Part shown: positions 4,502 to 54,554 of the stretch, one piece after another | Layout of the letters: each line of letters begins with the position of its first letter | Numbering within the stretch: position 1 is the first letter of the stretch | Assembly (NCBI GenBank): GCA_044356335.1 | Contig: JBIKWL010000005.1 | Location: 10,946-74,945 of the forward strand | Direction: 5' to 3' | Source: Candidatus Sericytochromatia bacterium | GTDB taxonomy: Bacteria > Cyanobacteriota > Sericytochromatia > UBA7694 | DNA length: 64,000 bases | The notes under the pieces: generated by a model | The model's database searches: none | The model's input: only the letters and a program-made list of their open reading frames with translations | Told to the model about the DNA's origin: nothing | Made by a program: the position numbers and the translations under genes

Positions 4502-5262
4502 CGTTCAACCTCTTCATCTTTTTTTAAAAACGGCGCAGCCAAATCGCTGTTGTCGAGCACAACACGGGCCCAGCGCCAGGGCTCGCAGCGCTGCAGATAC
4601 ATCTGTTGTCCCTGCACATAACGCCGTTGGCCGGGGGCTTCGGGGTCGGGGTCACTGCCATCACGTTGGGCCAGGCGGGCCACAGAAACGGCAAAAGGCA
4701 CGTCCAAAAACAGCGAAAAATCCCAATAGCTGCGCAATTCAGGTCGGTGCAAAAAAATGCCGTCCAAGAGCAAAACAGCGCCCGCTTGGGCCTGCTGCCA
4801 AGGCAAATCCAGGCGCTGATCCAAACGGTGATCAAAAACCGCCGGGCGGTAAGCCAAATTGCCCCCTGGCGAAAGCGGATCGAGCAGATTGGCTTTTAAT
4901 TGAGAATAGTCATACGAATCCTCAAAAAAGCCCAGAGGGGAGTCTTTGCCCTGCCGGTAGCGCAGAACACGGGGGTGGTGAAAACCATCCACCGAAGCAC
5001 GGATCACCGGCACTCCCTGAGCCAGCAAAAGCGCTCCCAATTCATGGGCCAGCGTGGTCTTGCCCGCCCCATCCACCCCATCGATCGCCACCCGCAATAC
5101 AGGCTGGGGTTGAATCCGCCTGATCTGGCCCAGCACTTGCGTTAAAACCCACGAACGCGACACGTTTAGCGCTTTCCGGCTGAGAGACAGGCATCCCGCA
5201 GTGCAAAGAACTGGGTGCGGTGGGCGTCGATCTGTGCTGGCTGACAGTTCAGACAGCGCCAA
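4498..5262 (-). CDS. P-loop nucleoside/uridine-kinase-like protein (PRK/Udk family). The start codon is uncertain and is probably downstream of 5262.
   Basis: Walker A motif IDGVDGAGKTT followed by kinase-like blocks. The stop overlaps the BtpA-gene start by 4 bp. The annotated start would overlap the upstream LRR gene by about 97 bp. Confidence 0.5.
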   Translation of the reverse strand: MALSELSASTDRRPPHPVLCTAGCLSLSRKALNVSRSWVLTQVLGQIRRIQPQPVLRVAIDGVDGAGKTTLAHELGALLLAQGVPVIRASVDGFHHPRVLRYRQGKDSPLGFFEDSYDYSQLKANLLDPLSPGGNLAYRPAVFDHRLDQRLDLPWQQAQAGAVLLLDGIFLHRPELRSYWDFSLFLDVPFAVSVARLAQRDGSDPDPEAPGQRRYVQGQQMYLQRCEPWRWARVVLDNSDLAAPFLKKDEEVER

Positions 5263-6131: not shown

Positions 6132-8305
6132 TCAGGCCCATTTAGGCCCAAGACCTTTAAAAAGAAGGCATATTTAAACGCCACCTCTTTAAGGTAATCA
6201 TAACGGCCAGAGGCACCCGCATGACCGGCACTCATATTGGTGTGCAACATCAGCAGGTTTTGGTCGGTTTTGGTGGCGCGCAGCTTGGCGACAAATTTGG
6301 CGGGCTCCCAATACTTTACGCGGGGGTCGTTGAGGCCTGCCAGCACGAGCATATTCGGGTAGTTTTTGGCGGCAATATTGTCGTAAGGTGAGTAGGTCTT
6401 GATATAGTCGTAATACGCCTTTTGATTGGGATTTCCCCATTCGTCGTATTCGATCACGGTCAAAGGCAAACTCGGATCAAGCATGGTGCTCAGGGCATCG
6501 ACAAAAGGCACATCGGCGATCACGCCTTGAAAGAGATCCGGGCGCAAATTGGTCACAGCCCCCATCAACAGGCCACCGGCGCTGCCACCTTCAATCACCA
6601 GCTTTTGGGGCGAGGTAAAGCCGTTTTTGATCAGGGCCTCGGCACTGGCGACAAAATCGGTAAAGGTATTGCGTTTATTGAGCAATTTGCCATTGAGGTA
6701 CCATTCACGGCCCAGGTCTTCACCGCCGCGAATATGGGCCAGGGCGTAGACAAAGCCGCGTTCGAGCAAGGCAATTCGGTTGGCGTCAAAATCTGTGTCG
6801 GTGCTGGAGCCATAGGCCCCATAGCTGTAGAGCAGGGTTGGGTTTTGTCCCGTCTTTTTGAGACCCCGTTTGTAGATCAGCGAAACCGGCACACGCACGC
6901 CGTCGGGGGCTGTGGCGTAGATCCGCTCAGTCACATAGCGGCCCGCATCATACCCAGGCACCGGGGATTGTTTTTTCAGGGCCAATTCCTGGGTATTCAG
7001 TTCGATGTCAAAGACCGAAGGGGGGGTCAACATCGAGGAATAGCCGACACGCAGCAGATTGCTATCGTGGTCCTGTTCAGCAGCGGGCCAAAGCGAGAAA
7101 TGGTTTTCAGGAAAGCGCAGGGTAATCTGTTTGTCGGTCAGCAGGTGTTTGACCCGCACCTCTTGGCGCGCGTCTGTACGGTAAATCAGCGCGGCCCAAC
7201 TGTCAAAGACCTTGACCGATTCCAGCTTGGCCCCCTTTTGTTCGGGCACAAAATCTTTCCATTGGCTGCGAGCAGGATTGGCAATCGGGGCCTGTTTCAG
7301 GCTGAAATTGAGCGAGCCATCATTGCTGTGAATCAGAAAACGCGGGCCGCTGTCCTCTACATGGTATTCCAGGCCTTCGATCCGGGGCTGAATCATCACG
7401 GGGGTGCTGTCGGGCTGATTCGCAGGGATATAGCGGCATTCAGTTGTGGTCAGACTCTCGATCTGGAGGATTAAATATTTGCCACTGGCGGTTTTGCCAA
7501 TATTCACGTTATAGCGTTCATCGGGCTCTTCAAAGACCAAAGTGTCTTTGGCGGCCTCTGTGCCCAGGCGGTGGCGGAATAGGCGATAAGGCCGATTGGC
7601 GGCGTCGATCACGTTATAAAAGAGGGTTTGGCTGTCAGCGGCCCACTCGACGGTGTAATAGGTATTGGGAATGCGTTCAGCCAGCAATTGCCCTGTCTGC
7701 AAATCTTTGACCATCAGGGTAAAGGCCTCTGCTCCCGTGGTATCGAGTGAATAGGCCAAATAGCGCTGATCGGGGCTCACCTCATAAATACCCAGGGCCA
7801 TAAAATCCTGGCCTTTGGCCTCGGTATTGAGATCGAGCAAAACCTCTTCAGGACCATTCATACTGCCTTTGCGGCGGCAATAGACCGGGTAATTCTGACC
7901 GGCATCAATGCGCGAATAATAAAAATAATCGCCCTTTTTGCGTGGCACGCTCTGATCTTTTTCAACCATGCGGCCCACCATTTCTTGATAAAGGGCCTTT
8001 TGCAAAGGCCGGGTATCTGCCATCTGGGCCTCGGTATAGCTATTTTCGGCCTGCAGGTAATTTAAAACACGGGGGTCTTCGGGGTAATTGCGCAGCCAGA
8101 AATAGGGATCTTCGCGGTTATCACCGTGTAAGCTGAGGGTTTTGGGCTGAAGAGGGGCCTGCGGAGGCTGCGTTTGTGCAGCCTGGGCGGGAAATGGGGA
8201 CAAGGTCATGATTAAAACTCCTGTGAGAAAAGTGGAACGAAGCAGTTGCAGGGTCGGGGCCAAGGGCTGAAACCGGGTATTTTTCCGCATCAGATTGATC
8301 CTCAA
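6128..8305 (-). CDS. ptrB: Oligopeptidase B (protease II), prolyl oligopeptidase family S9A, with an N-terminal signal peptide
   Basis: Strong collinearity with PtrB. GGSAGG serine motif and the S9 C-terminal catalytic domain. Hydrophobic N-terminus. Confidence 0.8.
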   Translation of the reverse strand: MRINLMRKNTRFQPLAPTLQLLRSTFLTGVLIMTLSPFPAQAAQTQPPQAPLQPKTLSLHGDNREDPYFWLRNYPEDPRVLNYLQAENSYTEAQMADTRPLQKALYQEMVGRMVEKDQSVPRKKGDYFYYSRIDAGQNYPVYCRRKGSMNGPEEVLLDLNTEAKGQDFMALGIYEVSPDQRYLAYSLDTTGAEAFTLMVKDLQTGQLLAERIPNTYYTVEWAADSQTLFYNVIDAANRPYRLFRHRLGTEAAKDTLVFEEPDERYNVNIGKTASGKYLILQIESLTTTECRYIPANQPDSTPVMIQPRIEGLEYHVEDSGPRFLIHSNDGSLNFSLKQAPIANPARSQWKDFVPEQKGAKLESVKVFDSWAALIYRTDARQEVRVKHLLTDKQITLRFPENHFSLWPAAEQDHDSNLLRVGYSSMLTPPSVFDIELNTQELALKKQSPVPGYDAGRYVTERIYATAPDGVRVPVSLIYKRGLKKTGQNPTLLYSYGAYGSSTDTDFDANRIALLERGFVYALAHIRGGEDLGREWYLNGKLLNKRNTFTDFVASAEALIKNGFTSPQKLVIEGGSAGGLLMGAVTNLRPDLFQGVIADVPFVDALSTMLDPSLPLTVIEYDEWGNPNQKAYYDYIKTYSPYDNIAAKNYPNMLVLAGLNDPRVKYWEPAKFVAKLRATKTDQNLLMLHTNMSAGHAGASGRYDYLKEVAFKYAFFLKVLGLNGPE

Positions 8306-8521
8306 ATTGATTTTTTTTCAGTGAACCACAAAAATTGACCCGATCACAACTGTAGGCCTCCCAGACAAGGCCCAAAATAGATTGAGGATTCTTTCTTGAC
8401 GAATGGGCGGATCCTTGGCTATGCTTATAATTGACGCGGTGTGTACAAAGATCTTCAATCCCTTTTTTGCGCTTGTCACACAGCTACTTGCAAACGAACT
8501 CGCGATTTGAAAGGTAATACC

Positions 8522-10258
8522 ATGTCTGAAAAAACTGGATTTCTCCGCAACCTCTTCCTCGGCGATGTGATTGAAGAAGTTATTTTTCCCTTCCCCCGCA
8601 TGAAAGCCGAAGAGCAGGAAACCATTGAGATGATTTCCGCCAGCATCAAGGCCTTTGGCAAAAAAGTTAACCAAGACAAAATCGACAAAGACGAAAAACT
8701 GCCGCCTGAGCTGCTGGAAGAAATGAAAGAACTGGGTCTCTTTGGTCTGATCATCCCCGAACAGTATGATGGCATTGGCCTGAGTGTCTCTGGTTACGCG
8801 CGCGTGCTCGAAGACCTGGCTGTGCTTGGCAGCGCCGTGGCAGCTACCGTTGGGGGCCACCAGAGCATTGGCATGAAAGGCCTGCTCTTGAGTGGCAACG
8901 ATGTCCAGAAAAAGAAATATCTCTCCAAATTGGCCAGTGGTGAAATGATTGCCGCTTTCTGTTTGACCGAGCCCAATTCCGGCTCAGATGCCGCCAGCAT
9001 CCGCACCCGCGCCGTCTTGAGCGAAGATGGCAGCCACTATATCCTCAACGGCGAAAAACAATTTATCACCAACGGTGGTTTTGCCGATTTTTACACCGTC
9101 TTTGCCCAAACCAGCATTGAAGAACAGGGCGTCAAACAGGACAAAATCACGGCCTTTATTGTCACCCGCGATCTTGGCGGTGTGAGCAGTGGCCCCGAAG
9201 AGCAGAAAATGGGCTGGAAAGGTTCTTCCACCACCATGGTCTTCTTCGAAGATGTCAAAGTGCCCGTCGAAAATGTGATTGGTGAACCTGGCAAAGGCTT
9301 TAAAGTTGCCATGGAAATTCTCAACAATGGCCGTCTCAGCACCTCCACCGCCTCTTTTGGCGTGGCCAAAATGCTGATCGATATGAGCATCAAATACGCC
9401 AATGAGCGCAAACAATTTGGCAAAGAGATTGGCCAATTCGACATTATCAAAGAGAAGATCGCCAATATGTCGATGCTGGCCTATGGCATGCAGTGCCTGG
9501 GTTATATGACGGCCGGGATCGTCGATCGTGGTGTGACCGATTATTCGATCGAAGCTGCAGTCGCCAAGGTCTTCAGCACCGAAGCGCTCTGGAAAATCTG
9601 CGACGAAGCGATGCAGATCCACGGCGGCATGGGCTATATGCGCGAATTGCCGATCGAACGCTTTATGCGCGATGCCCGTCTCGGTTTGATTATTGAAGGC
9701 ACCAGCGAAATCTCCCGTGCCATGATCGCCCTCGAAGGCCTCAAAACCCTGGGCAAATTCCTGAAAAAAGCCGGTCTGCGCGGCTATGCCCAAAAAACCT
9801 TTACCCCTGCCAAAATGACCAAGGCCCACCCGATCTTCAGCAAAGAAGTCAACCTCTTTTGCAAAGGTGTCGACAAACTGAGCGCCTACGCCATGCAATT
9901 GCTGCGGGTCTACAAAAAAGACGTGATCCTGCTGCAATTGCACCAAAAGCGCATTGCCGAAGCCGTCATGGATCTCTACGTGATGTCCGCAATGCTGTCG
10001 CGCACCACGGCGTTGCTTGAAGCTGGCAAGAGCAAAGAAGAGGCCAAAACCGAGATCTACATGACCCGTTCTTACTGCCGCATGGCCTTTGAGCGGATCG
10101 AAAAGAACATGGATCAATTTGATCTCAACCACGACCATTACCTCGGACGTCTGGCCGACACCCTCTACGAAGATGGCGAGTTCGCTCCCACAATCTTTGA
10201 TCTGGGTAGCTTAGAAGATATGCCGGCCGCCAAAGAATTGGCCACCGCCACTCCCTGA
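8522..10258 (+). CDS. Long-form acyl-CoA dehydrogenase (about 580 aa)
   Basis: ACAD N-terminal, middle and C-terminal domain blocks (FCLTEPNSGSDA, GxKxFITNG, QIHGGMGY). The likely start is the ATG at 8522, 27 codons inside the listed ORF. Confidence 0.8.
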   Translation: MSEKTGFLRNLFLGDVIEEVIFPFPRMKAEEQETIEMISASIKAFGKKVNQDKIDKDEKLPPELLEEMKELGLFGLIIPEQYDGIGLSVSGYARVLEDLAVLGSAVAATVGGHQSIGMKGLLLSGNDVQKKKYLSKLASGEMIAAFCLTEPNSGSDAASIRTRAVLSEDGSHYILNGEKQFITNGGFADFYTVFAQTSIEEQGVKQDKITAFIVTRDLGGVSSGPEEQKMGWKGSSTTMVFFEDVKVPVENVIGEPGKGFKVAMEILNNGRLSTSTASFGVAKMLIDMSIKYANERKQFGKEIGQFDIIKEKIANMSMLAYGMQCLGYMTAGIVDRGVTDYSIEAAVAKVFSTEALWKICDEAMQIHGGMGYMRELPIERFMRDARLGLIIEGTSEISRAMIALEGLKTLGKFLKKAGLRGYAQKTFTPAKMTKAHPIFSKEVNLFCKGVDKLSAYAMQLLRVYKKDVILLQLHQKRIAEAVMDLYVMSAMLSRTTALLEAGKSKEEAKTEIYMTRSYCRMAFERIEKNMDQFDLNHDHYLGRLADTLYEDGEFAPTIFDLGSLEDMPAAKELATATP

Positions 10259-10320
10259 GCTTGAAAGACAGCAAGGCCCGATCTGAGATCGCCAGATCGG
10301 GCCTTTGTTATGATAAAGAG

Positions 10321-11127
10321 ATGTCTCAATTTCCACACCATCAGACCTTGATCCAAAAATTGCTCACCCAGATCCAGCCAGATCCACGGTATCTGGGTCT
10401 GGCTGCGGGGGGCTCCTGGTCTGAAAAGCGCCTCGATCAGTGGTCCGATCTGGACCTGATTCTGTTCTGTGAGCCCCAGAGCCTGCCTGCACTGCTGGGC
10501 ACACGTGTGTCACTGGCAGCTAAATTGGGAGACCTGCTTGAGAGTTTTAGCGGTCAACACCTGGGCGATGAACGCCTGTTGATCTGCCTGTATGGGGACC
10601 CCTTGATGCAGGTGGGTTTAAAATGGATCGCTTTGCCCGATTATGTGCAGCGGGTCGAAGATCCCGAATTGCTCTGGGAGCGGAATTCACAGGTATCTCA
10701 ACTCTTGAGTGAGACATCCGGTGCCTATCCACGCCCAGATCTGGCCTGGATCGAAGCGCGTTTTTGGGTTTGGGTCCATCATGGTGCCCTCAAACTGGGC
10801 CGGGGAGAACTGCTTGAGCTGGCGGATCATTTGGGTTACTTGCGCAATCAGGTGCTGGGTCCGCTCTTGCTGATGCAATATGGACATCCCCCCCGGCGGG
10901 TCCGGCGGGTGGAAACAGACTTGCCGCCCGAAGCCTTGGCCCGACTTTTACAGACCTTGGCGGCTCATGATCGTGAGGCACAAGCCGAGGCACTGAGGGC
11001 TGCTGTCAGCCTCTACCGCGATTTACGTGTGTTCCACGGTTTGCCTGTCCAAGCCTGGAACCAGCAGGCAGAAAAAGCCGTGATGGAATTTTTCGAGGCC
11101 GTTCGCGGAAATAGGCCTGTGTTATAA
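10321..11127 (+). CDS. Nucleotidyltransferase (Pol-beta superfamily, ANT(6)/AadK-like)
   Basis: GGSWSEKRLDQWSDLDLILF matches the NTase GS...DxD signature. The length is about 270 aa. Confidence 0.5.
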   Translation: MSQFPHHQTLIQKLLTQIQPDPRYLGLAAGGSWSEKRLDQWSDLDLILFCEPQSLPALLGTRVSLAAKLGDLLESFSGQHLGDERLLICLYGDPLMQVGLKWIALPDYVQRVEDPELLWERNSQVSQLLSETSGAYPRPDLAWIEARFWVWVHHGALKLGRGELLELADHLGYLRNQVLGPLLLMQYGHPPRRVRRVETDLPPEALARLLQTLAAHDREAQAEALRAAVSLYRDLRVFHGLPVQAWNQQAEKAVMEFFEAVRGNRPVL

Positions 11128-11161
11128 TTGCCGGAGACTTCTGAAATAACGCGAAATAGAT

Positions 11162-11539
11162 ATGTATAATAACAAAACCAAATCCAAAGCCCTTTTGAGT
11201 GATGCTGATGTATCATCCCATCTTGAGGCGCTTGTTGAATTACTTGAAGAGAAAAAAGCGATTGATCTGGCCAGTTTAGATCTGCGCCAACGCTCCACCG
11301 TTGCCGATTATTTTGTGGTGGGTGGCGCCAACTCACGTCCCCACGGCCAAGCATTGGTGGGAACCGTGCACCAATATGCCAAAGAGAAAGATTTACAGGT
11401 TTACAGCCTGGAAGGCCAAGGTGACGGCACCTGGATCTTGATCGATCTGGGCTTTCTCGTGGTACATATCATGCAAGAAGAGGAACGCCGTTTTTACAAT
11501 CTGGAAGAGCTGTGGAGCCATGCAGAAGCAAGCCATTAA
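11162..11539 (+). CDS. rsfS: Ribosome silencing factor RsfS (Iojap)
   Basis: DUF143-like blocks (DYFVV, WILIDLGFLVVHIM, RRFYNLEELW). Confidence 0.8.
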   Translation: MYNNKTKSKALLSDADVSSHLEALVELLEEKKAIDLASLDLRQRSTVADYFVVGGANSRPHGQALVGTVHQYAKEKDLQVYSLEGQGDGTWILIDLGFLVVHIMQEEERRFYNLEELWSHAEASH

Positions 11540-11999
11540 AGCAGGTTTTAAACGAGCCCACCAACAGGGGATGACGATCTATGAAATCCTGACGGTGTGC
11601 GTTATTATCTCTGTTCTGGTCATGATTGCTGTGCCCAATTTTATTGCCAATAAAGATCGGGCCAACGACTCCCAAATCGAAAGTAACGCACGTACACTGC
11701 GAATTATGCTTGAAACCTACAAAGTAGATCACAAGCTCTATCCTGAAGATCTGCGTACATTGGGCTACGAAGCCACCCAAGAAAAATACAACAAAGCCAT
11801 GACCAACCCCTATAGCCAAGCCAGTGGCGAAGTGGAAAGCGGCAAATGGGCGATTGACTATGTTGGCCCCACCGGCCCAGCGGGTATGGTCACTTATCAA
11901 CCTTTGGCTGGGGGCGATAAATATTATATTTTTGGCTATGCCAAAGACGGCTCTTTTCACAAAAAGAGCGGTAAAATTTTCACCATGAGCAATGGCTAA
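11520..11999 (+). CDS. Prepilin-type N-terminal cleavage/methylation domain protein (type IV pilin-like or pseudopilin)
   Basis: Leader ending in G followed by MTIYEILTVCVIISVLVMIAVPNF, with Glu at +5 and a hydrophobic helix. The start overlaps the rsfS end by 20 bp. Confidence 0.6.
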   Translation: MQKQAIKAGFKRAHQQGMTIYEILTVCVIISVLVMIAVPNFIANKDRANDSQIESNARTLRIMLETYKVDHKLYPEDLRTLGYEATQEKYNKAMTNPYSQASGEVESGKWAIDYVGPTGPAGMVTYQPLAGGDKYYIFGYAKDGSFHKKSGKIFTMSNG

Positions 12000-12039
12000 C
12001 TGAGCAATAGCTAAACAAAGACAATAAGGGAAAACAGAG

Positions 12040-12588
12040 ATGGCAGAACGCAGCTACCGCCGCACCCAGTATTTTGTCAAACCGGATTTACAAACCAAAT
12101 ATGCCTTTATGTTTGTACTGGCCATTGGGGTGGGCCTCAATTTGGGAGTCATTCTGGCGCTATTGGCTCCGATGCTCAAAAATGACTCACCGGTTTTTCC
12201 TTTGCTCTATTTGCTCTTGGCCCTCTCATTTGTCGTGCTCGTAGCGGGTATCAGCATTCTCTTTACCCATAAAATCGCCGGGCCGATCTTCAAGATCGAG
12301 CGCAGTTTTCGCCAGATCATCGACGAAAAAGATCTGAGCTTGCGTGTCTTTTTGCGCACGGATGACGAGCTGCAGGAATTGGCTGAAGAGATCAACCGTT
12401 TACTGGAACATTTCCGCAACAGCCTCTTACTCGAAAACCAAAAAAGTGACGCTCTATTGGCCAAACTTGACTATGTACTGGCCAATCTGGAGGGCGAAAA
12501 TGCCCTGCCCGCAGCGGAGATCCAAGAGCGTTTGGCCGATCTACGCCAAAAACTCGAGGATACGGGCCTAAAATACAAACTCAGGTAG
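12040..12588 (+). CDS. Small membrane protein with two TM helices and a HAMP-like coiled-coil domain
   Basis: Two hydrophobic segments followed by the HAMP-like AGPIFKIERSFRQIIDEKDLSLRV...LQELAEEINRLLE. Confidence 0.45.
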   Translation: MAERSYRRTQYFVKPDLQTKYAFMFVLAIGVGLNLGVILALLAPMLKNDSPVFPLLYLLLALSFVVLVAGISILFTHKIAGPIFKIERSFRQIIDEKDLSLRVFLRTDDELQELAEEINRLLEHFRNSLLLENQKSDALLAKLDYVLANLEGENALPAAEIQERLADLRQKLEDTGLKYKLR

Positions 12589-12633
12589 TCAGATCCCGAT
12601 CCCGTTCAAAACTGGATTTATTTTTCTAAACCC

Positions 12634-12661
12634 TTGTCAAGGCCGTCGTTTTCCTATAAAT
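12634..12661 (+). promoter_or_regulatory. Candidate sigma70-type promoter for the str operon (TTGTCA-N15/16-TATAAAT)
   Basis: Hexamers seen about 240 bp upstream of rpsL. The rpsL gene uses a TTG start with the GAGGAGGG RBS at about 12884. Confidence 0.25.
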
Positions 12662-12900
12662 TAGGAAGTCTTGGGGACTTCTTGGAATGACTCCGGTAAA
12701 AATGGGGTGCTTTTTGACCGCTTGGTCTGAGATGTAACTCACATCTGACTCTCATCTGGCTCAGATTTTTCCCGCAAAGCCGCTGAATATGGTAGACATC
12801 GCCCCAATCTATTGCTATACTTTGTTTCCTGAAATACCATTTTCATTATTCCGATTTATCCTGAATTTAAAGCTTGTAAACCAGTTGAGGAGGGATTCTC

Positions 12901-13299
12901 TTGCCTACGATCAATCAGTTAATCCGGAAACCTAGAAAAGCCGTGACTTATAAATCCAAGTCACCCGCTTTGAAACAATGCCCTCAGCGCAGAGGGGTTT
13001 GTACCCGTGTTTTTACCATGACACCGAAAAAACCGAACTCCGCCCTGCGCAAAGTGGCCCGTGTTCGTCTGACCAGCAAAATTGAAGTAACCGCTTATAT
13101 TCCTGGTATTGGCCACAACCTGCAGGAGCACTCTGTTGTGCTGATCCGCGGCGGCCGTGTCAAAGACTTGCCCGGTGTGCGTTACCACGTGGTTCGCGGC
13201 ACCCTGGATACAGGTGGTGCCGTCAACAGAGCCCAAGGACGCTCCAAATATGGCGCTAAACCGCCTAAGAAATCCAAAACAGTAGCGAAGAAAAAGTAG
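12901..13299 (+). CDS. rpsL: 30S ribosomal protein S12
   Basis: Canonical S12 sequence ([28 protein letters not shown]). TTG start. Confidence 0.95.
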
Positions 13300-13314
13300 T
13301 GAAAAGGTGATCCT

Positions 13315-13785
13315 ATGCCCAGAAGAGCGAAAATCAAAAAGCGGATTCCAGCACCCGATGCCGTATACCGCAGTGAAATTCTTTCTAAATTTGTCAATTG
13401 CATGATGATGCGCGGCAAGAAGACCGTGGCTGAAAACATTGTTTATAAAGCCCTCGGTCGTGCTGAAGAAAAACTGAAAAAACCTGGCATTGAAATCTTC
13501 GAACAGGCACTTAAAAACGTGCGTCCAGTGATCGAAGTGAAACCCCGCCGTGTCGGTGGCGCTACTTATCAGGTTCCTGTTGAAGTAACCGACGAGCGCG
13601 GTATCGCTCTGGCGCTGCGCTGGGTCATCAAACACGCCCGCGCCCGCAATGGCAAATCCATGATTGAGCAGCTGTCGTCTGAACTCACGGATGCCTATAA
13701 CAATACCGGCGCCAGTGTCAAGAAGCGCGAAGACACACACAAAATGGCCGATGCCAATCGGGCTTTCGCGCATTACCGCTATTAA
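13315..13785 (+). CDS. rpsG: 30S ribosomal protein S7
   Basis: Canonical S7 sequence. Confidence 0.95.
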   Translation: MPRRAKIKKRIPAPDAVYRSEILSKFVNCMMMRGKKTVAENIVYKALGRAEEKLKKPGIEIFEQALKNVRPVIEVKPRRVGGATYQVPVEVTDERGIALALRWVIKHARARNGKSMIEQLSSELTDAYNNTGASVKKREDTHKMADANRAFAHYRY

Positions 13786-13797
13786 AGGATACAGATT

Positions 13798-15897
13798 ATG
13801 TCTAGGAAAGTAAAAATTGAAACCGTCCGCAATATTGGCATTGTTGCCCATATTGATGCCGGTAAAACCACCACGACAGAGCGCATTCTGTACTACACCG
13901 GCATGGTTCACAAGATCGGTGAAGTACACGACGGCACCGCCGTGACCGACTACATGGTACAAGAGCGCGAACGTGGGATCACCATCACCTCAGCTGCCAT
14001 TACCTCCGAATGGAAAAACCACCGGATCAATATCATTGATACCCCTGGTCACGTGGACTTCACCGTTGAAGTAGAGCGCTCTTTGCGCGTACTTGATGGC
14101 ATGGTCGGCGTCATTTGCGCAGTGGCCGGTGTACAGCCCCAGTCTGAAACCGTCTGGCGCCAAGCCAACCGTTACAAAGTTCCCCGTATTGCCTTCGTCA
14201 ACAAAATGGATCGTCCAGGCGCCAACTTCGTTCGTGCCTTCGAAAAAGTGCGTGAGCGCTTGAATGACCGTGCGATTCCCGCCCAATTGCCCATCTTCCA
14301 AAACGAAGAGTTCTTTGGCATCATCGATTTGATCACCGAAAAAGCCTACGGTTATTTTGATGACCTCGGTGAAGATATCCGTGAGATTCCCATTCCCGAT
14401 GATATGCTCAAAGATGTGGAAAAATACCGCGAAGAGTTGATCGAAGCAGCCTCCGAAATGGATGACGAGCTGATCAACAAATACCTCGAAGGTGAAGCCA
14501 TCGGCATTGATGAACTCAAAGCCGCAATCCGCAAATCTGTCATTGCCACCAAGATGACCCCCGTTTTCTGTGGCACCGCTTTTAAAAACAAAGGGGTTCA
14601 GCTCCTGCTGGATGCGGTTCTGGATTATCTGCCTTCTCCCAGCGATGTCGCTCCCGTCAAAGACATGTCCAAAGAAGACGAAGAAGTTTTGCTCTATCCC
14701 AAAGATGACGAGCCCTTCTCTGCCTTGGCCTTTAAGATCATCACTGATCCCTTTATTGGCAAACTGACCTTTATCCGTTGCTATTCTGGCACTCTGGAAA
14801 AAGGCAGCTATGTCTACAACTCCACCAAAGGCAGTAAAGAGCGTATCTCCCGTCTGGTTCAGATGCGTGCCGATCAGCGTCTCGAAATCGATGCCGTGTA
14901 TGCAGGCGATTTGGCAGCTGCCATCGGTCTGCGCAACACCACCACCGGTGACACCCTCTGTACGGAAGACAAGCCCGTGATTCTGGAGAGCATGGTCTTC
15001 CCCGAACCTGTGGTTTCTGTGGCCGTTGAGCCCAAGACCCAAGCCGACCGCGACAAGCTCTCTGCAGCTCTGGGCCGTCTGGCTGAAGAAGATCCCACTT
15101 TCCGCGTGAAAGTGGACCATGAGACCGGCGAAACGATTATTTCCGGCATGGGTGAATTGCACCTCGAGATTATCGCTGACCGTCTGGTTCGCGAATTCAA
15201 CGTCGGCTGTAATGTTGGTAAACCTCAGATTTCTTACCGCGAAACCATTCGCAACAAGATTGAAAACGAGACCAAGTTTATCAAACAATCCGGCGGTCGC
15301 GGTCAATATGCACATATCCGTGTTCGTATGGAACCCCTTCCCGCTGATTCAGATGAGTCATTTATCTTCGTCAGCGAAGTCGTCGGGGGTGTTATTCCCA
15401 AAGAATACATTCCTGCCGTTGAAGGTGGCATGCGTGATGCCATGACCTCAGGCGTCGTTGCTGGTTTCCCTGCAATTGGCATCAAAGTGACCCTGTACGA
15501 TGGTTCTTATCACGAAGTTGACTCTTCTGATATGGCCTTCCGGATCGCTGGTTCAATGGGCTTCAAAGAATCTATGCGCAAAGCCAACCCCTATCTGTTG
15601 GAACCCCGCATGAGCCTCGAAGTTATTGTGCCCGAAAATAATATGGGTGACGTCATGGGCGACCTTCAAGGCCGTCGTCGTGGCGAACTCAAGAGCATGG
15701 AAGCCGAAGATGGTGGCCTCCAGAAAATTCATGCATCTGTTCCCTTGGCCGAAATGTTCGGCTACGCAACCGATGTACGGTCCATGACACAAGGCCGTGG
15801 GACCTTCAGTATGGAGTTCTCACACTATGCCGAAGTACCTAAGAACGTGGCCGAAGCCGTAGTGTATCAATCTGGCGCTGCTAAAGCAAAGGCATAG
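13798..15897 (+). CDS. fusA: Elongation factor G
   Basis: [10 protein letters not shown]-domain and full-length collinearity with EF-G. Confidence 0.95.
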
Positions 15898-15905
15898 ATA
15901 TGCTA

Positions 15906-15950
15906 TAGACACTTGGCCTAAGATTGATTAAAATTGATCTTAGGCCAAGT
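15906..15950 (+). terminator. Perfect 13-bp-stem palindrome between fusA and tuf; candidate attenuator or partial terminator
   Basis: acttggcctaaga-N-tcttaggccaagt, with no strong T-tract. Confidence 0.3.
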
Positions 15951-16001
15951 TAAATATAAGTTAACCCAATCAAAATTATATTGTGACCTAGGAGATTCAG
16001 T

Positions 16002-17234
16002 ATGGCGAGAGAAAAATTTGAACGAAATAAACCGCACGTCAATATCGGCACAATTGGCCACGTTGACCACGGTAAAACAACCCTGACTGCAGCTATTACC
16101 ATGACATTGGCAGCAGCCGGTGGTGGTCTGGCTCGTGGCTACGACCAAATTGACAATGCCCCCGAAGAAAAAGCCCGTGGTATTACCATTAATACCAGCC
16201 ACGTGGAATATGAAACCACAAAACGGCACTATGCTCACGTGGACTGCCCTGGCCACGCTGACTACATCAAGAACATGATTACTGGTGCAGCTCAGATGGA
16301 CGGCGCTATCTTGGTTGTGTCTGCAGCTGACGGCCCCATGCCCCAGACCCGCGAACATATCCTCTTGGCCCGCCAGGTAGGCGTTCCCAGCATGGTTTGC
16401 TTCCTCAACAAGATCGACCAGGTAGATGACCCTGAGCTGATCGAGTTGGTTGAAATGGAACTGCGCGAACTGTTGACCGAATATGACTTCCCCGGCGATG
16501 ATATCCCCATCGTAGCTGGTTCTGGCTTTAAAGCCATGGAAGCCATGACTGGCAACCCCAAAACCCAACGCGGTGAAAACGAATGGGTCGACAAAGTCTG
16601 GGCCCTGATGGACGCCGTTGACTCTTACATTCCCGATCCCGCCCGTGACGTCGACAAACCCCTGCTGATGGCAGTGGAAGATGTCTTCACCATCACTGGT
16701 CGTGGTACCGTAGCAACTGGCCGTATTGAACGCGGTCGCTGCAAAGTCGGTGAAGAAGTTGAAATCGTCGGTCTCGGCGATACCCGTAAAACAGTTGTAA
16801 CCGGTGTGGAAATGTTCCGCAAAACCCTGGACGAAGGTCTGGCTGGTGACAACGTGGGTATCCTGATGCGCGGTATCAGCAAAGATGACGTGGAGCGCGG
16901 CCAGGTTGTTGCTAAACCCGGTTCAATCAAGCCCCACAATCACTTCAATGCACAGGTTTACGTCTTGAAGAAAGAGGAAGGTGGCCGTCACACCCCCTTC
17001 TTCCCTGGCTATCGTCCTCAGTTCTATGTCCGTACCACCGACGTAACCGGCGAGTGCAAACTCCCCGAAGGCGTAGAGATGGTCATGCCTGGCGACAATA
17101 TCGGAATGGTAGTTGTCCTGCAGAAGCCGGTCGCTATCGAAGAAGGGATGCGTTTCGCGATTCGTGAAGGTGGCCGTACGGTCGGTTCAGGCGTCGTAAG
17201 CAAAATCCTGGAAGACATTAAAGAAGAAGAATAA
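16002..17234 (+). CDS. tuf: Elongation factor Tu
   Basis: [10 protein letters not shown] and canonical EF-Tu sequence throughout. Confidence 0.97.
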
Positions 17235-46049: not shown

Positions 46050-47456
46050 TTGGCAATCGCTGAGGAGAAATCTATGTGCCCCATTGTATCTGGCTATTCT
46101 GAGTCTTTGGTCAATCGAAACAGCTCTGTTTCAGATGCCGCCCAAGGATTGCGTTCAGGCAGTATCGCAAGAGCAGGACAAAGCTGGAGTTCAATTGAAA
46201 CGCAGGCACTTCCCCAGGCTCCTGGCACAGAATCCGCAACACTCCCCGAACTCCCCCTTTCTCCCGAAACAGCTGAACTGGCATTTGATTCGGACTTGCA
46301 AGGCCAGTGGCAAGGGACGGGGAGAGAACAAGCAGATTTTCAACCTTCTCAGCTCGCTTTTGGGCTGCGCGAAAAAAATCAGCGCTTTGAATTCAGTCAA
46401 AGCCTAAAACAGGATATAAAAAGTGCTTCGGCAACCATCCCTGAGCACGGGAAATCTGACGAGAGAAGCTATACCGTGGGTCATCTGAGTCTGGCGTCCA
46501 CAGCCCAAATCAAAGATGAACTCGGCAAAGAATGGCTGATCTTGGAACAGAATTTCAGCGCAGCAGACAGCGGAGAGCAAGCGCGTTCGGGCTTGGCCCG
46601 TTACCAAGCCACACAGGCTCTTCAGGTTTCGGGGGCTTGGTCAAGCAACCCAACCCACCAAAGTCGTAGCTTGGGAGTCTCGTATCAGCCGTCAACAGAA
46701 GAAGCACCCGATCCGCTTTCACTCTCACTGCTCACCACACAGACCGAGACGGCTGAACAAAAAACAGAGGCCCAAAACCTGCATTTACAATACGACCAAA
46801 GCCATTTGACTTATGCCCATGAGCACAGCAATCCCCGTCAAACAATGGCAGGGTCAATAGCCCCCCAAACCATGCAAGAGCTTGGGGTAGGCAGCACAAT
46901 TCAAACGCTCTCTTTCGGCCTCAATCAACGGGAGACCATCGCTGAATTTTTCAATCTGGAGACACAGACGGGATTTCTCAATTGGCAGCTCAACGAAAGC
47001 AGCCAAATCCAGCTCAATCACAGCCGTGAAGTACTCAGCGAAGGCAGTCTTCCGGCCACAGTCAGCGAGTCGAATCAAATCACACTCAAACACAGTTTTG
47101 ACCCAGAAACCAGCGGGGAACTGAGCTATCTGAATAAGCCCCAAGTATCAGAACTCTTTTCAGGAAAATGGAGCGATAGCCAATGGGAAGGCGCCTTCGA
47201 GCGCGAGCGCAATCACAAAGACCCAAGCTTAAGCCAAACCCGTTACCAACTCAGTTACGCCACTCAAAGTTTGCAAGAACAGCCCCTGGCACTGGAGTGC
47301 CGCGTTTCACTCTTAGAACGGTCAAATGGGAAAGAATGGAATGGAAATCTGCGTCTCTATGGAACAGAGCTTAAAGAATCTGCTTTTGAGGCCAGCTTGA
47401 ATGTGGGTTCAAAAACACCACCCACACTCAAGTTCAACTACAACCAGGACTTTTAG
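46050..47456 (+). CDS. Hypothetical Q/S/T-rich protein with a C-terminal ...NYNQDF (F-terminal) sequence; possible outer-membrane protein
   Basis: Long ORF with compositional bias. No clear N-terminal signal from the annotated start, and the true start is uncertain. Confidence 0.4.
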   Translation: MAIAEEKSMCPIVSGYSESLVNRNSSVSDAAQGLRSGSIARAGQSWSSIETQALPQAPGTESATLPELPLSPETAELAFDSDLQGQWQGTGREQADFQPSQLAFGLREKNQRFEFSQSLKQDIKSASATIPEHGKSDERSYTVGHLSLASTAQIKDELGKEWLILEQNFSAADSGEQARSGLARYQATQALQVSGAWSSNPTHQSRSLGVSYQPSTEEAPDPLSLSLLTTQTETAEQKTEAQNLHLQYDQSHLTYAHEHSNPRQTMAGSIAPQTMQELGVGSTIQTLSFGLNQRETIAEFFNLETQTGFLNWQLNESSQIQLNHSREVLSEGSLPATVSESNQITLKHSFDPETSGELSYLNKPQVSELFSGKWSDSQWEGAFERERNHKDPSLSQTRYQLSYATQSLQEQPLALECRVSLLERSNGKEWNGNLRLYGTELKESAFEASLNVGSKTPPTLKFNYNQDF

Positions 47457-48541
47457 CCTGCAAACGAAATAATCTGGCTGATACCTTTACCGGCTGAACG
47501 GCGGTTGTCCATGGCCGATTGCAATTCTGCGGCTGTGCGCACCTGATTGGGACCACGGGCAGGATCATCGACAATAAAGGTGCCATCGGGATTGACCCCT
47601 TTGATCACGGTATAGTGGCCGGCTGTGCCACCAAAACCACCGGTCAGCAAAACGACTTTTTCGCCCTTATCGAGTTTTGCTTTGATCTGGGCCAAGGCCT
47701 GCTGACTGTTTGCGGGCAGCGATTCGGTGGTAGAGGTAACCGTACGGCCTTGGGCTGCTGCCTGTTTTTTGACAGCTTCGGCCAATTGCTCTGTGCCAAT
47801 GGCAAAGGCCCCGCCTTCGTTGCCACTGGTCGACACACGTCCACCCACCATTTGGCGAATTTCATGCATCGAAGGCGCAGGCAAACCCAATTGTTTCATG
47901 ATCATTGAAGCCGAAGCCGGGCCACAATTGGCCTGAGACTCACGGGCATGAGTTGCTCCCAAACCACGTTCGGACCATTGGGAGGTAAATGAACCTGTAT
48001 CGCCAGGCGCAGTGGGGGGATTGCCAACACCCGTTGCCCCACCCGCACCAGGTGTACCCGGCATTTGAAAGTCGCCGGTAGGCGCAAAACAGGCACCGGG
48101 ACGACCCTGAACATCAACTTGGCAGTCAGATTCCTGGGCCTGTTCAGAAGAAGGCACCCAGGAAAATAGGTTTTTGAAAAAGTCACCGATTGAACCAAAG
48201 AAAGATTTGTCTTCAACGGGATTGGCGGCATCTTTAAACTGGCTGAAGAGTTCATTCACCAATTGCGAGTCTTTGAGGCCACCCGCCATTTTCTCCAACT
48301 CGGCCATTTCACTTTTTTCAAGAACGCCGTTATTGAAAAAGCCCACGTTGGTAAAGTCTTTCATTTTATCAGCGAGTTTGAGAAATGCGGCTTTCTCAGA
48401 CTCAGGCCCATCCAGGCCTTTGACCAATTGCTTCAGATCTTTGAGTTCGTCCCGGGAGATTTTGCCGTCTGAGGTAATCTGCTGAAGTTGATTGACAAAT
48501 GTGGGATTAAGCGGTTGAGAGGGGCCGACCTGCATGGGCAA
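47453..48541 (-). CDS. Hypothetical protein with a C-terminal papain-like C39-type cysteine peptidase domain
   Basis: NCGPASASMIMKQLG (catalytic Cys region) and GHYTVIKGVNPDGTFIVDDP (His region). There is no ABC transporter or ATPase module. Confidence 0.5.
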   Translation of the reverse strand: MPMQVGPSQPLNPTFVNQLQQITSDGKISRDELKDLKQLVKGLDGPESEKAAFLKLADKMKDFTNVGFFNNGVLEKSEMAELEKMAGGLKDSQLVNELFSQFKDAANPVEDKSFFGSIGDFFKNLFSWVPSSEQAQESDCQVDVQGRPGACFAPTGDFQMPGTPGAGGATGVGNPPTAPGDTGSFTSQWSERGLGATHARESQANCGPASASMIMKQLGLPAPSMHEIRQMVGGRVSTSGNEGGAFAIGTEQLAEAVKKQAAAQGRTVTSTTESLPANSQQALAQIKAKLDKGEKVVLLTGGFGGTAGHYTVIKGVNPDGTFIVDDPARGPNQVRTAAELQSAMDNRRSAGKGISQIISFAG

Positions 48542-48618
48542 AACTCCTTAAAAAATATAAACTAGTTTCTTTATACCCTGCCCTTGTAAAATAATTCGGC
48601 AAGACTTGGAAAACGAGT

Positions 48619-50100
48619 TTAAGCTTTGTTTATTTTTTCTAAATCGATCAGAACTTGAGCTGTGCGGCTGCGTTTGTAACTGTCAATTTCTTTCAAGGCC
48701 TTGACCTCTCCCGCTTTGGCCCGTGTGACCATTTTTTTCTGATTGAGCGGCGAGAGGTCCAATTGAATCGCTGGAGCTGCAGGTGATTCCGCAGAGGCCC
48801 CGCCCACTTTTTTACGGGCATGAAAGTCGGCAAAAATGGCCTGAATGTCTTCCCAGGAAGGGGAGTGGCTCCACAATGCTTCTTCAGCCAAAAGATGCTG
48901 AAGCGGGAAAATCGCAAGTTTTTCCAAAGCTTCGTGTTCCTCTAAAAGCAAGGTCACTTTTTTTAAAGCCAAAATATCTTGGGCCAAACGGGTCAACTTC
49001 CCCCATTCAGCCCAAGCCAAACGTTCAACCCGCAGCAATTTGGCCAAAATCGTCGAAGAAGCAGTTTTGCGATCTTTAAACAGCGACAATTGCTGGTTGA
49101 TGCGCTCTATCTCCTGCAAATGCTGAGCCAGGATCTGACAAATGGCCGTCCAGCGTTCGGCCAAGGTGCGAATTACCGACTTGTGATCGGTTTCGTAATG
49201 CTGGGCCACTTGGTGAATAAAGAGTTTGGCCAGGGTTTCTTTTTGGCGCAAAACTTGCTCAGGCACAATTTGGGGAGGCGCTTCCACCAGTTTTTGGTAG
49301 AGCCGATGTACCCGTTCGGCAAAGAGAAAGGTCTGAGCAATAGCATCTTCGACATCTTCAGCAGGCAAATCAATGCCAATTTGCGTCAATAGACGGTAGA
49401 CATAGGCAATATCACTTTGGGTCATGAAGTTTTCAGGTGTGGCGGCAAAGAGCGCTGCAATAATAAACTCCATGATCACCTGTGGACTATTGCTCAAACG
49501 CAGCAGCGAAAGCAGTTCTGGCCGAAGCCAGTCGGTTTCGGGACTTTCACCCGATTGGGCAGCCATTTGAACATAGACCTGCTTCATCGAAGCCCTGAAA
49601 ACATCCATATCAATCTGCAGGGCCTGTTTTTTGACCTCGGGTTTGTCTTCTTCAATCCCTTCGGCCCCAAAGCGATTTAAGAGACCCGAAAGGGCGCCAA
49701 ATTTGAGGTCAAAGCTCTCATCACGGGCTTCTTCAACCGTTTTGCGTTTGGGCGGGGGGTTGCTGCCTGGTTTTTCATAACCGACCCGAATCGTCTCGGG
49801 CTGGGTATAGTCAAACTCTTCCTCCTCGTCATCGCCCTCCCAATCATCTTCCCAATCCTCTTCAAAAGAGGCTTCCTGGGCATCCCGCGACAAGGTCTCT
49901 TCCTGCTGAGGTTCTTTGCCCATCAAGGTATTGAGTAGGTTTTTGGTCTCCCCGAGGGGAGTGTCGTCCATGAATTTTTTGGCTTTTTCGAGAAACTGAT
50001 TGCGCAATTGGTGGTGCTGACCACGGGCCATCGGCTTTTCAGCCTTGACATGCTCTTCATCGGATTTAGAAAAATATTCGCCGCTGTTGTCTTTGGCCAT
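48619..50100 (-). CDS. Hypothetical protein (493 aa) with an acidic DE-rich segment and a predicted helical C-terminal region
   Basis: Long ORF. I recognise no motif. Confidence 0.4.
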   Translation of the reverse strand: MAKDNSGEYFSKSDEEHVKAEKPMARGQHHQLRNQFLEKAKKFMDDTPLGETKNLLNTLMGKEPQQEETLSRDAQEASFEEDWEDDWEGDDEEEEFDYTQPETIRVGYEKPGSNPPPKRKTVEEARDESFDLKFGALSGLLNRFGAEGIEEDKPEVKKQALQIDMDVFRASMKQVYVQMAAQSGESPETDWLRPELLSLLRLSNSPQVIMEFIIAALFAATPENFMTQSDIAYVYRLLTQIGIDLPAEDVEDAIAQTFLFAERVHRLYQKLVEAPPQIVPEQVLRQKETLAKLFIHQVAQHYETDHKSVIRTLAERWTAICQILAQHLQEIERINQQLSLFKDRKTASSTILAKLLRVERLAWAEWGKLTRLAQDILALKKVTLLLEEHEALEKLAIFPLQHLLAEEALWSHSPSWEDIQAIFADFHARKKVGGASAESPAAPAIQLDLSPLNQKKMVTRAKAGEVKALKEIDSYKRSRTAQVLIDLEKINKA

Positions 50101-50103
50101 TGC

Positions 50104-51225
50104 TTAAACTGCCCCCTGTTCCGCTTCGGCTGAAACAGGTTCTTGCTCTGCCTCTTCTTCGGGATCAGCCAAATAGGTCAGATAGATATAGCGCAGCACT
50201 GAGCGCAAAATCGCAGCCACGGGCACCCCAAAGAGCAGCCCCACAGCCCCAAAGAAATGCTCTCCAACCACAATGGAGAAGACGATGATCGCCGGATGCA
50301 ATTCAACGGTATGCCCCAGAATTTTGGGATTGAGAAAATTGGCTTCGATCAGATGAATAATAATAATCACACCAATCACGGCCAAAGCCGTGAGCCAGGA
50401 TTGGGTCAGGGCAATAATCACCGCTGGCACCGTACTGATCACCGCTCCAAAGACCGGAATCAAACTAAAGATACCTGCGACAAAACCAATGGTGATCGCA
50501 AATTTAACCTTGAGCAACAACAATCCCAGGGTGGTCAAGGTGCCGTTGATCAAACAAATCAGCAATTGCCCGCGAATCGTGCCACTCAGATCGCGGTCGA
50601 TAGCATGCACCAAGTCCAGCACCAGGGGACGATAGCGCTTGGGGATCAGCTGAATCAGCTCCACTTTAATTCGGGGCAAATCAATCAGGAGAAACGCCGT
50701 GACAATAAAGATCACCAAAAATGTACTCAGGGCCGAAAAGAGCAATTTGATCAGGGTTTGCACATGACTGACCATGGACTCAATCTGGCCTTTGCCCGCC
50801 TTGATCACAGTTTCTAAACCCTGAGCGAGATAGGTCTCGACATCCAGACGCAAACCAAATTTGGTATTGTAAAACTCGGCCTGCTGCACCAAAGAAGGCA
50901 GGGTTACCGCCCTGAAATGCTCAAGCTGATGGGGCAAATCCCGACCCATGCGCAAAACTTCTTGGTAAAGTGGCGGCAAGACAATCAAGCCCAAAATCGC
51001 CACCCCCAAAAACACAAAGATATAGACCAGCATCACAGTGATGCCACGGGGCAAGGTTCGACCTAAAAATTTTTGTTTGGAAAGATAATCTACCAAAGGA
51101 GCGAGCAAATAGACAAACAGTCCACTGAAAACAAAGGGCAATAAAATTTCATGGATCAAATACAAAAGACCTGCCAGAGCGGCAGTAAAAAAGAGAAATA
51201 TCCAGCGTTTGGTTTTGGGGTTCAT
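50104..51225 (-). CDS. AI-2E family transporter (PerM/YhhT, UPF0118)
   Basis: 8-TM topology and family-typical N- and C-terminal blocks. Confidence 0.7.
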   Translation of the reverse strand: MNPKTKRWIFLFFTAALAGLLYLIHEILLPFVFSGLFVYLLAPLVDYLSKQKFLGRTLPRGITVMLVYIFVFLGVAILGLIVLPPLYQEVLRMGRDLPHQLEHFRAVTLPSLVQQAEFYNTKFGLRLDVETYLAQGLETVIKAGKGQIESMVSHVQTLIKLLFSALSTFLVIFIVTAFLLIDLPRIKVELIQLIPKRYRPLVLDLVHAIDRDLSGTIRGQLLICLINGTLTTLGLLLLKVKFAITIGFVAGIFSLIPVFGAVISTVPAVIIALTQSWLTALAVIGVIIIIHLIEANFLNPKILGHTVELHPAIIVFSIVVGEHFFGAVGLLFGVPVAAILRSVLRYIYLTYLADPEEEAEQEPVSAEAEQGAV

Positions 51226-53249: not shown

Positions 53250-53369
53250 TGCGGAAGCTTCGCAAAAATTACAAAAATATCGTTGTTTGGGGCATTATTG
53301 CCTCTTTGGTGCTGAGTATCATCTTTAGTTTGGTTGTCTCAATGGCCACGATTTTTGTACAATAAAGAT

Positions 53370-54554
53370 ATGACATCTCCTTTCTCTTTTCATAAACTCA
53401 CGTTAATCGCATCAGCGGGACTGATGCTGGCGCTCTCGCTGTCTGCGACCGCCCCCTCTTTGAGCGCCCCCTCCAACCAAAAAGTGCGCTCCCAGGTGCA
53501 AGAATTTAAGAACAACGAAGTGCGCATCAAAGAGCTGAAAAACAAGATCCAAGAGCTGGAAAAAAAGGCCCGCAACTCCAAGGAGAATATCTCCGAGATT
53601 CAACAGGAACTCGAAAAAACCAAGCTCGAACTCGACAAAACCAACCGCCGCTATGAGGTCGCCCACAAAGAGGTGGAAGTCATCACCAAACAATTGCTAA
53701 GGGCTGAACAGAGCTGGGAAAGCCGCCTCGACGCCTCGCAAGATCGCCTGCGCGAAATGTACAAATTGCGCCGCTATTCCCAGACCAATCAATTGGTCGA
53801 AGCCCAAAACCTCTCCAGTTTTATGCGCCGCCTGACCTATTTCCGCTATTTGGCCAAACAGGACCAAAACATGTTGGACGAAATGCGCCTGGCCAAAGAA
53901 AAGCTCGAACGCTACCAATACCAGCAAATGCTCAAACGGCAAATTCTTGGCAAAAAAGCCCACGAACAGGCCCAGGCCAAAGCCCTGCACGAATACCAAA
54001 AGCGCAAAGAGCAGCAATACCTGGCCCGCGTGCAAAAAGAAAAGGCCGTCTACGAAAAAGAGATGAATGCCTTAGAGGCTGAATCGCGCCGGATTGCCGA
54101 ATATCTACGCCAGCTCTACGCCGCCCGCAGCGGAGGCGGCAGCCGCATGAGTTCAGTACCTCTCGGCAGTGGCCGTTTTACCTCCCCCGTGCCCGGCGCG
54201 GTCATGACCTCGCCCTTCGGCTGGCGCACCCACCCGATTTTTGGCACGGCCCGTTTACACACCGGCATTGACTTTGGTGTTGGTTCCGGCACACCGATTC
54301 GGGCCGCCGACCACGGCGTGGTGATCGATGCCTCTTGGATGGGCGGCTATGGCAAAGCAGTCATGGTGGATCATGGTCAGGGTCTGGTCACCCTCTACGC
54401 CCACACCTCAGCTTATTACGTGACTGTCGGACAGCGTGTGCGCAAGGGCCAGATCATTGCCGCTGTGGGCAGCACAGGTTATAGCACAGGCCCCCACTTG
54501 CACCTCGAAGTACGCAAAAACGGGAATCCGATTGATCCACGGCCTTTCTTTTAG
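53370..54554 (+). CDS. M23 family metallopeptidase with an N-terminal coiled-coil (EnvC/NlpD-like)
   Basis: Signal peptide, then long coiled coils. C-terminal HTGIDFG...GSTGYSTGPHLHLEV. Confidence 0.7.
   Translation: MTSPFSFHKLTLIASAGLMLALSLSATAPSLSAPSNQKVRSQVQEFKNNEVRIKELKNKIQELEKKARNSKENISEIQQELEKTKLELDKTNRRYEVAHKEVEVITKQLLRAEQSWESRLDASQDRLREMYKLRRYSQTNQLVEAQNLSSFMRRLTYFRYLAKQDQNMLDEMRLAKEKLERYQYQQMLKRQILGKKAHEQAQAKALHEYQKRKEQQYLARVQKEKAVYEKEMNALEAESRRIAEYLRQLYAARSGGGSRMSSVPLGSGRFTSPVPGAVMTSPFGWRTHPIFGTARLHTGIDFGVGSGTPIRAADHGVVIDASWMGGYGKAVMVDHGQGLVTLYAHTSAYYVTVGQRVRKGQIIAAVGSTGYSTGPHLHLEVRKNGNPIDPRPFF

Follow-up and report, generated by a model that had tools for sequence, protein, structure and literature searches.

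Modular endolysins of Gram-negative phages combine an N-terminal binding domain with a C-terminal catalytic domain, and lack a signal peptide. The peptidoglycan-degrading effectors of type VI secretion systems (T6SS) include Tae, Tge and VgrG3. Peptidases of the Pfam family C39_2 are single-domain proteins, unlike those of the transporter-fused C39 family (PMC10318531). A C39_2 domain is present as the N5 domain of mycobacteriophage LysA (PMC3314691), and a census of endolysins counts C39_2 among the catalytic domains (PMC8223927). Here, we analyse a C39-like cysteine peptidase gene in a 64-kb stretch of Candidatus Sericytochromatia DNA (contig JBIKWL010000005.1, hereafter the window), together with fetched comparison loci (L001 etc.). 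Judged from its sequence and those of its relatives, the encoded protein is a candidate leaderless, modular peptidoglycan peptidase rather than a double-glycine leader peptidase. We put the probability of this reading at roughly one half.

The gene and its parts are located as follows, with residues numbered in the 360-aa form of the protein unless stated otherwise:

47453-48541, minus strand: peptidase open reading frame (ORF) as first annotated, 362 aa, TTG start at 48541
47453..48535, minus strand: peptidase gene with re-assigned start, 360 aa (MQV...), ATG at 48535
48544..48549, minus strand: Shine-Dalgarno motif AAGGAG, read from the sequence, 8 nt upstream of the ATG at 48535
48206..48535, minus strand: N-terminal helical module, residues 1-110, five helices, with motifs SDGKISRDE and NNGVLEKSE
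48158..48205, minus strand: amphipathic helix SFFGSIGDFFKNLFSW, residues 111-126, end of the N-terminal module, modelled as a helix
47951..48157, minus strand: disordered linker, residues 127-195, rich in Gly, Pro, Ala and Thr, low predicted local distance difference test (pLDDT) score
47456..47950, minus strand: papain-fold catalytic domain (Peptidase_C39_2), residues 196-360
47924..47926, minus strand: codon of the candidate catalytic Cys204 (Cys206 in the 362-aa numbering), invariant in alignments A1 and A3
47615..47617, minus strand: codon of the candidate catalytic His307 (His309 in the 362-aa numbering), invariant
47564..47566, minus strand: codon of the candidate third triad residue Asp324 (Asp326 in the 362-aa numbering), invariant in A1 and A3

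Translation probably begins at the ATG at 48535, given the spacing of the AAGGAG motif and the MQV with which homologs start. The TTG chosen at first lies 6 nt, or two codons, further upstream.

The catalytic domain contains the motifs ...QANCGPASASM... and ...GHYTVIKG...VDDPARG.... It matches Pfam Peptidase_C39_2 (PF13529) with 34.8 bits (cut-off 24; E 3.1e-8), over residues 187-328 and profile positions 7-143 of 143. The same profile is matched by 84 of 109 relatives. The match to Peptidase_C39 (PF03412) is marginal (22.5 bits, cut-off 22) and aligns only the His/Asp region (residues 304-336), Peptidase_C70 stays under its cut-off, and the Pfam scan of the peptidase detected no ATP-binding cassette (ABC) module. 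C204, H307 and D324 are invariant across twelve homologs. The candidate catalytic Cys is kept in all 128 full-length C-terminal domains of the wider family, with a C-H-D triad in 125 and C-H-N in two. AlphaFold2 models the C-terminal domain with pLDDT >90 and the N-terminal helical domain with moderate confidence, whereas the linker is disordered (pLDDT <50 over residues 113-197 in the 362-aa numbering). The ratio of nonsynonymous to synonymous substitution rates (Ka/Ks) against orthologs is 0.04, equal to that of UvrC and MscL, and therefore indicates strong purifying selection. In view of the C39_2 match above cut-off, the confident model, the nearly universal triad and the low Ka/Ks, the protein is a real, intact clan-CA cysteine peptidase of the C39_2 branch, predicted to be catalytically competent. 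The initial annotation had described a stand-alone C39-like papain-fold peptidase with these motifs and no ABC module, and had named another fold or a lack of Cys/His conservation as grounds for rejecting this view; Pfam, the model and the conserved triad all agree with the description, the fold is that of papain, and Cys and His are invariant. A free-standing copy is not unusual: since C39_2 comprises single-domain peptidases, standing alone is the norm (PMC10318531). As a stand-alone C39_2 peptidase the protein is ordinary, and NCBI already calls one relative a 'C39 family peptidase'.

Several C39-like paralogs occur in pairs. They are divergent in L006 (8746-11050) and L008 (8760-11041), and in tandem with a 4-bp overlap in L009 (9554-11613); the triad is kept in all of them. 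One tandem paralog in L009 had been suspected of being inactive because a regular expression missed its Cys motif, but the triad is present in the hidden Markov model (HMM) alignment.

What sets the protein apart is its N-terminal part. The N-terminal 200 aa had been considered unassignable, but resolve into a helical domain of ~110 aa, the amphipathic helix SFFGSIGDFFKNLFSW and a disordered, Pro/Gly-rich linker of ~70 aa. The helix has a hydrophobic moment of 0.56-0.61 and a mean hydrophobicity of 0.33, and is kept in 14 family members, including the lysozyme-type protein P0066. The linker varies in length and sequence among homologs. Its residues 137-150 contain two Cys (SDCQVDVQGRPGACF) that the three closest ortholog groups keep, whereas homologs at 53% identity do not; the pair could form a disulfide loop, hinting at an oxidising extracytoplasmic location. 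The resemblance of the N-terminal module to TerB (PF05099), DUF533 and EF-hand domains remains below threshold throughout. For the window protein only EF-hand HMMs match, weakly (E 0.01-0.09); paralog modules show weak TerB or DUF533 matches (E 0.001-0.1), the best being P0066 with 22.2 bits for TerB against a cut-off of 24.4.

An exhaustive search with a profile built from C39-type members only retrieved just 256 relatives among 1.84 billion representative proteins. We examined 156 of them: 47 have the N-terminal module and the C-terminal domain, 94 the C-terminal domain only, and 15 the N-terminal module only. In this last group, the first ~110-185 aa match the window peptidase, and the C-termini carry other domains:

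P0055: C-terminal T6SS_VgrG3-like_C, a VgrG3-like lysozyme (Pfam E 2e-17)
P0066: C-terminal T6SS_VgrG3-like_C, a VgrG3-like lysozyme (Pfam E 5.5e-17)
P0107: C-terminal SLT (Pfam E 1.3e-5, above cut-off)
P0155: C-terminal CHAP-like domain (Pfam E 1.7e-3, below cut-off)

A fifth protein, P0092, resembles P0155 by eye only, and Pfam gave no CHAP match for it. BLAST aligns the window peptidase with P0055 at 42% identity over 185 aa (E 1e-33) and with P0092 at 47% over 98 aa (E 1e-26), in both cases over the N-terminal module and linker only. The P0055 contig is from a Sericytochromatia organism. A scan of metagenomes with a pattern for the N-terminal module yielded no confirmed relatives.

The same kind of sharing has arisen with another module. 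In L017, neighbouring C39-like and CHAP-like genes have a different, unrelated N-terminal module of ~80 aa in common (35% identity, E 4e-7). By sequence comparison, this is an independent second case of an N-terminal module common to C39-like and CHAP-like domains. In L010, a CHAP-like relative (30.1 bits, above cut-off) adjoins another C39-like paralog. Among 109 relatives, the more distant ones that have the C-terminal domain only carry accessory domains, namely PG_binding_1 in eight, LysM in five, SLT in three and Hydrolase_2 in one; an ABC transporter domain is found in none of the 109.

The paralogs differ at their N-termini. A second type (L007, L010, L011, L012, L014; 260-310 aa) has a strictly conserved start M-(T/S)-F-P-L...PGQLF, followed by a Pro-rich region and then GLERGWxxLKDTFxFQF just ahead of the C39-like domain. 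A third type is marked by MPNxDxxVxxLNxDV at its start and by the motif ILKDGxIDxAExDL. In both types, the very N-terminus is conserved and might be a recognition signal. The L017 pair (4110-16756, STL-CYA2 genome) is flanked by two proteins of ~1800 aa without a Pfam domain. In L029, a Wadjet/JetABC-like (MksBEF) gene set at 8363-12393 lies ~4 kb from an SLT-type paralog with the N-terminal module, which is probably coincidental.

Because the N-terminal module is common to proteins with known wall-degrading domains, cleavage of the cell wall is likelier than cleavage of leader peptides. The family layout comprises a helical N-terminal module ending in the amphipathic helix, a disordered Pro/Gly-rich linker, and an interchangeable C-terminal wall-hydrolase domain, which may be C39-like, CHAP/NlpC-P60-like, a VgrG3-like lysozyme or an SLT lytic transglycosylase. 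By analogy with these partners, we infer that the C39-like domain may itself cleave peptidoglycan. Its substrate would be the peptide part of the polymer, and the enzyme an endopeptidase or amidase. The N-terminal module and amphipathic helix may be what these enzymes share for targeting, regulation or export by a non-Sec route. Some such route, or a lysis-type release, is implied because the close family members all lack signal peptides. Autolysin and weapon against other bacteria are the two roles that we consider. Of the 'processing or effector module' that had been suggested at the outset, neither the processing nor the module survives, and the effector idea is recast as a wall-degrading enzyme with a shared N-terminal module.

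Several points weigh against a peptidoglycan peptidase. No close family member has a signal peptide or transmembrane segment, not even the relatives with a peptidoglycan-binding domain, which leaves no evident route to the wall. The window peptidase carries no recognised wall-binding domain, has no PHROG endolysin match, and has no relatives in phage or plasmid records by tblastn. The case is built on an association between domain architectures. In structure comparisons, the domains that cleave proteins at Gly-Gly (ComA, LahT, PCAT1, Cpe1 and StbD-CT) match as well as or better than PeiR, a pseudomurein endoisopeptidase and the sole wall enzyme; the scores are 14.0 for PeiR, 12.9 for phytochelatin synthase, 12.9 for UfSP2 and 12.4 for the B. 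anthracis C39_2 protein 3erv. Finally, no immunity-like gene is conserved next to the peptidase gene, which counts against an antibacterial effector, but not against an autolysin.

The absence of signal peptides may also be read more boldly. It is doubtful, but conceivable, that Sericytochromatia have an undescribed non-Sec delivery or activation route for polymorphic wall-degrading enzymes. The N-terminal module and amphipathic helix would then be the recognition or translocation element, and the lytic domains would be attached via the flexible linker. Such a route, if real, might have a function in interbacterial antagonism, in predation or in programmed lysis. Should the C39-like domain prove to be a peptidoglycan peptidase, it would provide a functional anchor for a poorly characterised Pfam family, and would pose the question of how signal-less lysins get to the wall. 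The answer might then reveal a mechanism of export or autolysis in a phylum of which no member has been cultured.

The main rival to a peptidoglycan peptidase, although itself unlikely, is a toxin like Cpe1 or StbD-CT that cleaves an essential protein in the cytoplasm of a target cell (e.g. GyrB or ParE) at a site of the Gly-Gly type, with the N-terminal module and flexible linker serving delivery or entry. Cpe1 cleaves LHAGGKF in GyrB and ParE (PMC12136450). The top Foldseek matches in the PDB are StbD-CT (8ssk, 8ssm) and Cpe1 (9l5u, template modelling score 0.69), at 17-18% identity, and Cpe1 is the best genuine sequence-profile match in the PDB (E 2.8e-4). StbD-CT has the same layout of domain, flexible linker and C39 peptidase, and the family is leaderless, with several paralogs per genome and variable N-termini. 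However, Pfam detected no PAAR (DUF4150), VgrG, Rhs, CdiA or LXG delivery domain in the window peptidase or its relatives, and there are no secretion-system genes in the window. No immunity-like gene is conserved beside the paralogs, and the gene downstream of the window peptidase is a convergent orphan. Selection is purifying at the housekeeping level and not diversifying, and what the N-terminal module is otherwise joined to are wall hydrolases and not toxins that act in the cytoplasm. We also considered that the protein might process itself at a Gly-Gly of the linker, like StbD-CT, and rejected this idea because orthologs do not keep the AGGA of the linker of the window peptidase.

Alternatively, the protein could be a cytoplasmic papain-fold enzyme with other chemistry, namely a phytochelatin-synthase-like gamma-glutamyl transpeptidase, a BtrH/CtaG-like acyltransferase or ligase, or a protease for ubiquitin-like modifiers, possibly with a metal-binding N-terminal module as regulator. 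The absence of a leader, the sub-threshold TerB/EF-hand-like motifs and the BtrH_N matches in 6 of 109 relatives would fit. But the window peptidase itself matches neither Phytochelatin nor BtrH_N in Pfam, such structures score below C39 domains, and the sharing of the N-terminal module with lysozyme, SLT and CHAP domains would be left unexplained, all of which makes this alternative distinctly improbable.

The suggestion of leader processing in the initial annotation, by which the protein would act in trans to mature double-glycine-leader peptides (of bacteriocins or of the Nif11/NHLP type), is very improbable: the PF03412 match spans only residues 304-336, the neighbours are unrelated housekeeping genes that change between genomes, and neither an ABC transporter nor double-glycine leaders accompany the family. 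ABC transporters are neither fused nor adjacent in 23-28 loci and 109 family relatives. In the window and the fetched loci, a regular expression for the leader motif matched 6 of 4703 small ORFs; shuffles gave an expectation of 4.1, so that the count is at chance level, and leader-like small ORFs are not found near any family gene. A split peptidase-containing ABC transporter (PCAT) was also rejected, as the suspected transporters in L006, L008 and L018 are GH15, trehalose-phosphate synthase, MAPEG-like and HD-GYP proteins. Reading 'C39' as 'bacteriocin leader peptidase' is thus an easy annotation mistake, which is corrected here.

The genes around the peptidase gene are:

46050-47456, plus strand: 468-aa ORF ending in ...NYNQDF, product named QST468
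48619-50100, minus strand: 493-aa ORF, acidic/helical product named acid493
50104-51225, minus strand: AI-2E-family transporter gene, 373-aa ORF, Pfam AI-2E_transport confirmed

The ORF listing and Pfam bear out the three ORFs of 362, 468 and 493 aa and the transporter gene as first annotated. The QST468 and peptidase genes are convergent, with stops overlapping by 4 bp. The acid493 gene, which had been said to follow the peptidase gene, instead lies upstream of it on the same strand. The description of both large neighbours as hypothetical holds, in that they have no Pfam or NCBIfam matches.

The peptidase gene is independent of both flanking genes, and there is no three-gene module. The idea of such a module is ruled out on synteny, which with both neighbours is confined to the genus (L001, L002, L003, L005). 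All-against-all clustering of ORFs from 23 loci identified no neighbour family conserved past the genus, and the few recurrent neighbours at paralog loci are housekeeping genes, unrelated and differing among genomes. For acid493 we found nine homologs and no Pfam match. In two distant genomes (L024 and L026, with acid493 identities of 57% and 35%), the stop of the AI-2E transporter gene overlaps the start of the acid493 gene directly behind it, and neither locus has a C39 gene close by. In L027, where the peptidase ortholog is 69% identical, an esterase gene lies between the acid493 and peptidase genes. Even where acid493 is 35% identical, its gene is always the next one after an AI-2E-family transporter gene, from which it is separated by 3 nt or the stop of which overlaps its start (window 48619-51225, minus strand; L024, L026, L027). 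By sequence, the pair looks like a conserved two-gene unit in Sericytochromatia.

Among 5.8 billion protein clusters there are only two homologs of QST468, a genus-restricted orphan. With a Ka/Ks of ~0.2, it appears to be the product of a genuine, fast-evolving gene, which changes ~5x faster than its neighbours (0.04). In the close relative L005, it is mostly deleted, with a 91-aa remnant at 11095-11370. The end of the protein, ...LKFNYNQDF, resembles a beta-signal, and QST468 has no signal peptide. No counterpart was found at other paralog loci; a 467-aa convergent gene in L028 was rejected as such, as it shows no similarity.

The window is ~98% identical to contigs of Candidatus Blackallbacteria/Sericytochromatia metagenome-assembled genomes. 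The surroundings are core chromosome, with genes for SecY, GroEL, ATP synthase subunit a, a release factor, UvrC, MscL, a GH1 enzyme and an M23/EnvC-like peptidase. No prophage, holin or secretion-system genes were found in the window, and no immunity or adaptor genes near the peptidase gene. The M23 peptidase, with a PcsB/EnvC-like coiled coil, is encoded on the plus strand at 53334-54554, just past UvrC and ~5 kb from the C39-like gene; it is a conventional wall hydrolase or activator. A phage or defence origin of the peptidase was considered and rejected, as there is no PHROG or PADLOC match and no tblastn match in phage or plasmid records. In IMG/VR, the weak relatives are very large virion proteins that combine C39_2 with Phage_lysozyme2. 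Two of these phage proteins (L031, 39-7352, 2437 aa; L032, 9-5921, 1970 aa) are tape-measure- or virion-like and contain one or two C39_2 domains each, L031 in addition a phage tail lysozyme domain.

Among known systems, C39 proper (PF03412; ComA, LahT, PCAT1) differs from the window peptidase in several respects. No ABC transporter or double-glycine-leader substrate is found near the latter, which has ~25 extra residues between Cys and His and a conserved Gln 3 and not 6 residues before the Cys, and the sequence similarity is restricted to the His/Asp region. Cpe1 (E. coli T6SS effector, 9L5U) and StbD-CT (toxin of the C. rodentium contact-dependent inhibition (CDI) system, 8SSK/8SSM) are the best Foldseek matches, but at 17-18% identity the window peptidase is distant from both, and it has neither a T6SS or CDI delivery domain nor an adjacent immunity gene.

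The likeness to C39_2 (PF13529; B. anthracis 3ERV, LysA N5) extends to the HMM score above cut-off, the stand-alone papain fold, the Cys-His-Asp triad, and relatives that are found in lysins and alongside wall-binding domains. In contrast to C39_2 at large, the window peptidase belongs to a separate small subfamily, the 256 relatives of which are almost confined to Sericytochromatia and include none in PHROG, phage or plasmid records, and it has a lineage-specific N-terminal module and linker and no signal peptide. Modular endolysins and peptidoglycan-degrading T6SS effectors differ from the window gene in location, as this gene is on the core chromosome and not in a prophage or secretion locus, with no holin, immunity or adaptor genes nearby; its N-terminal module is not a known wall-binding or T6SS-loading domain. 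Like them, the window family is leaderless, with a non-catalytic N-terminal module followed by a C-terminal lytic domain, and like them it joins one front module to peptidase, muramidase and transglycosylase domains. The novelty is in this architecture, in which a single leaderless N-terminal module appears to be combined with at least four unrelated classes of wall hydrolases, in an uncultured sister lineage of the Cyanobacteria.

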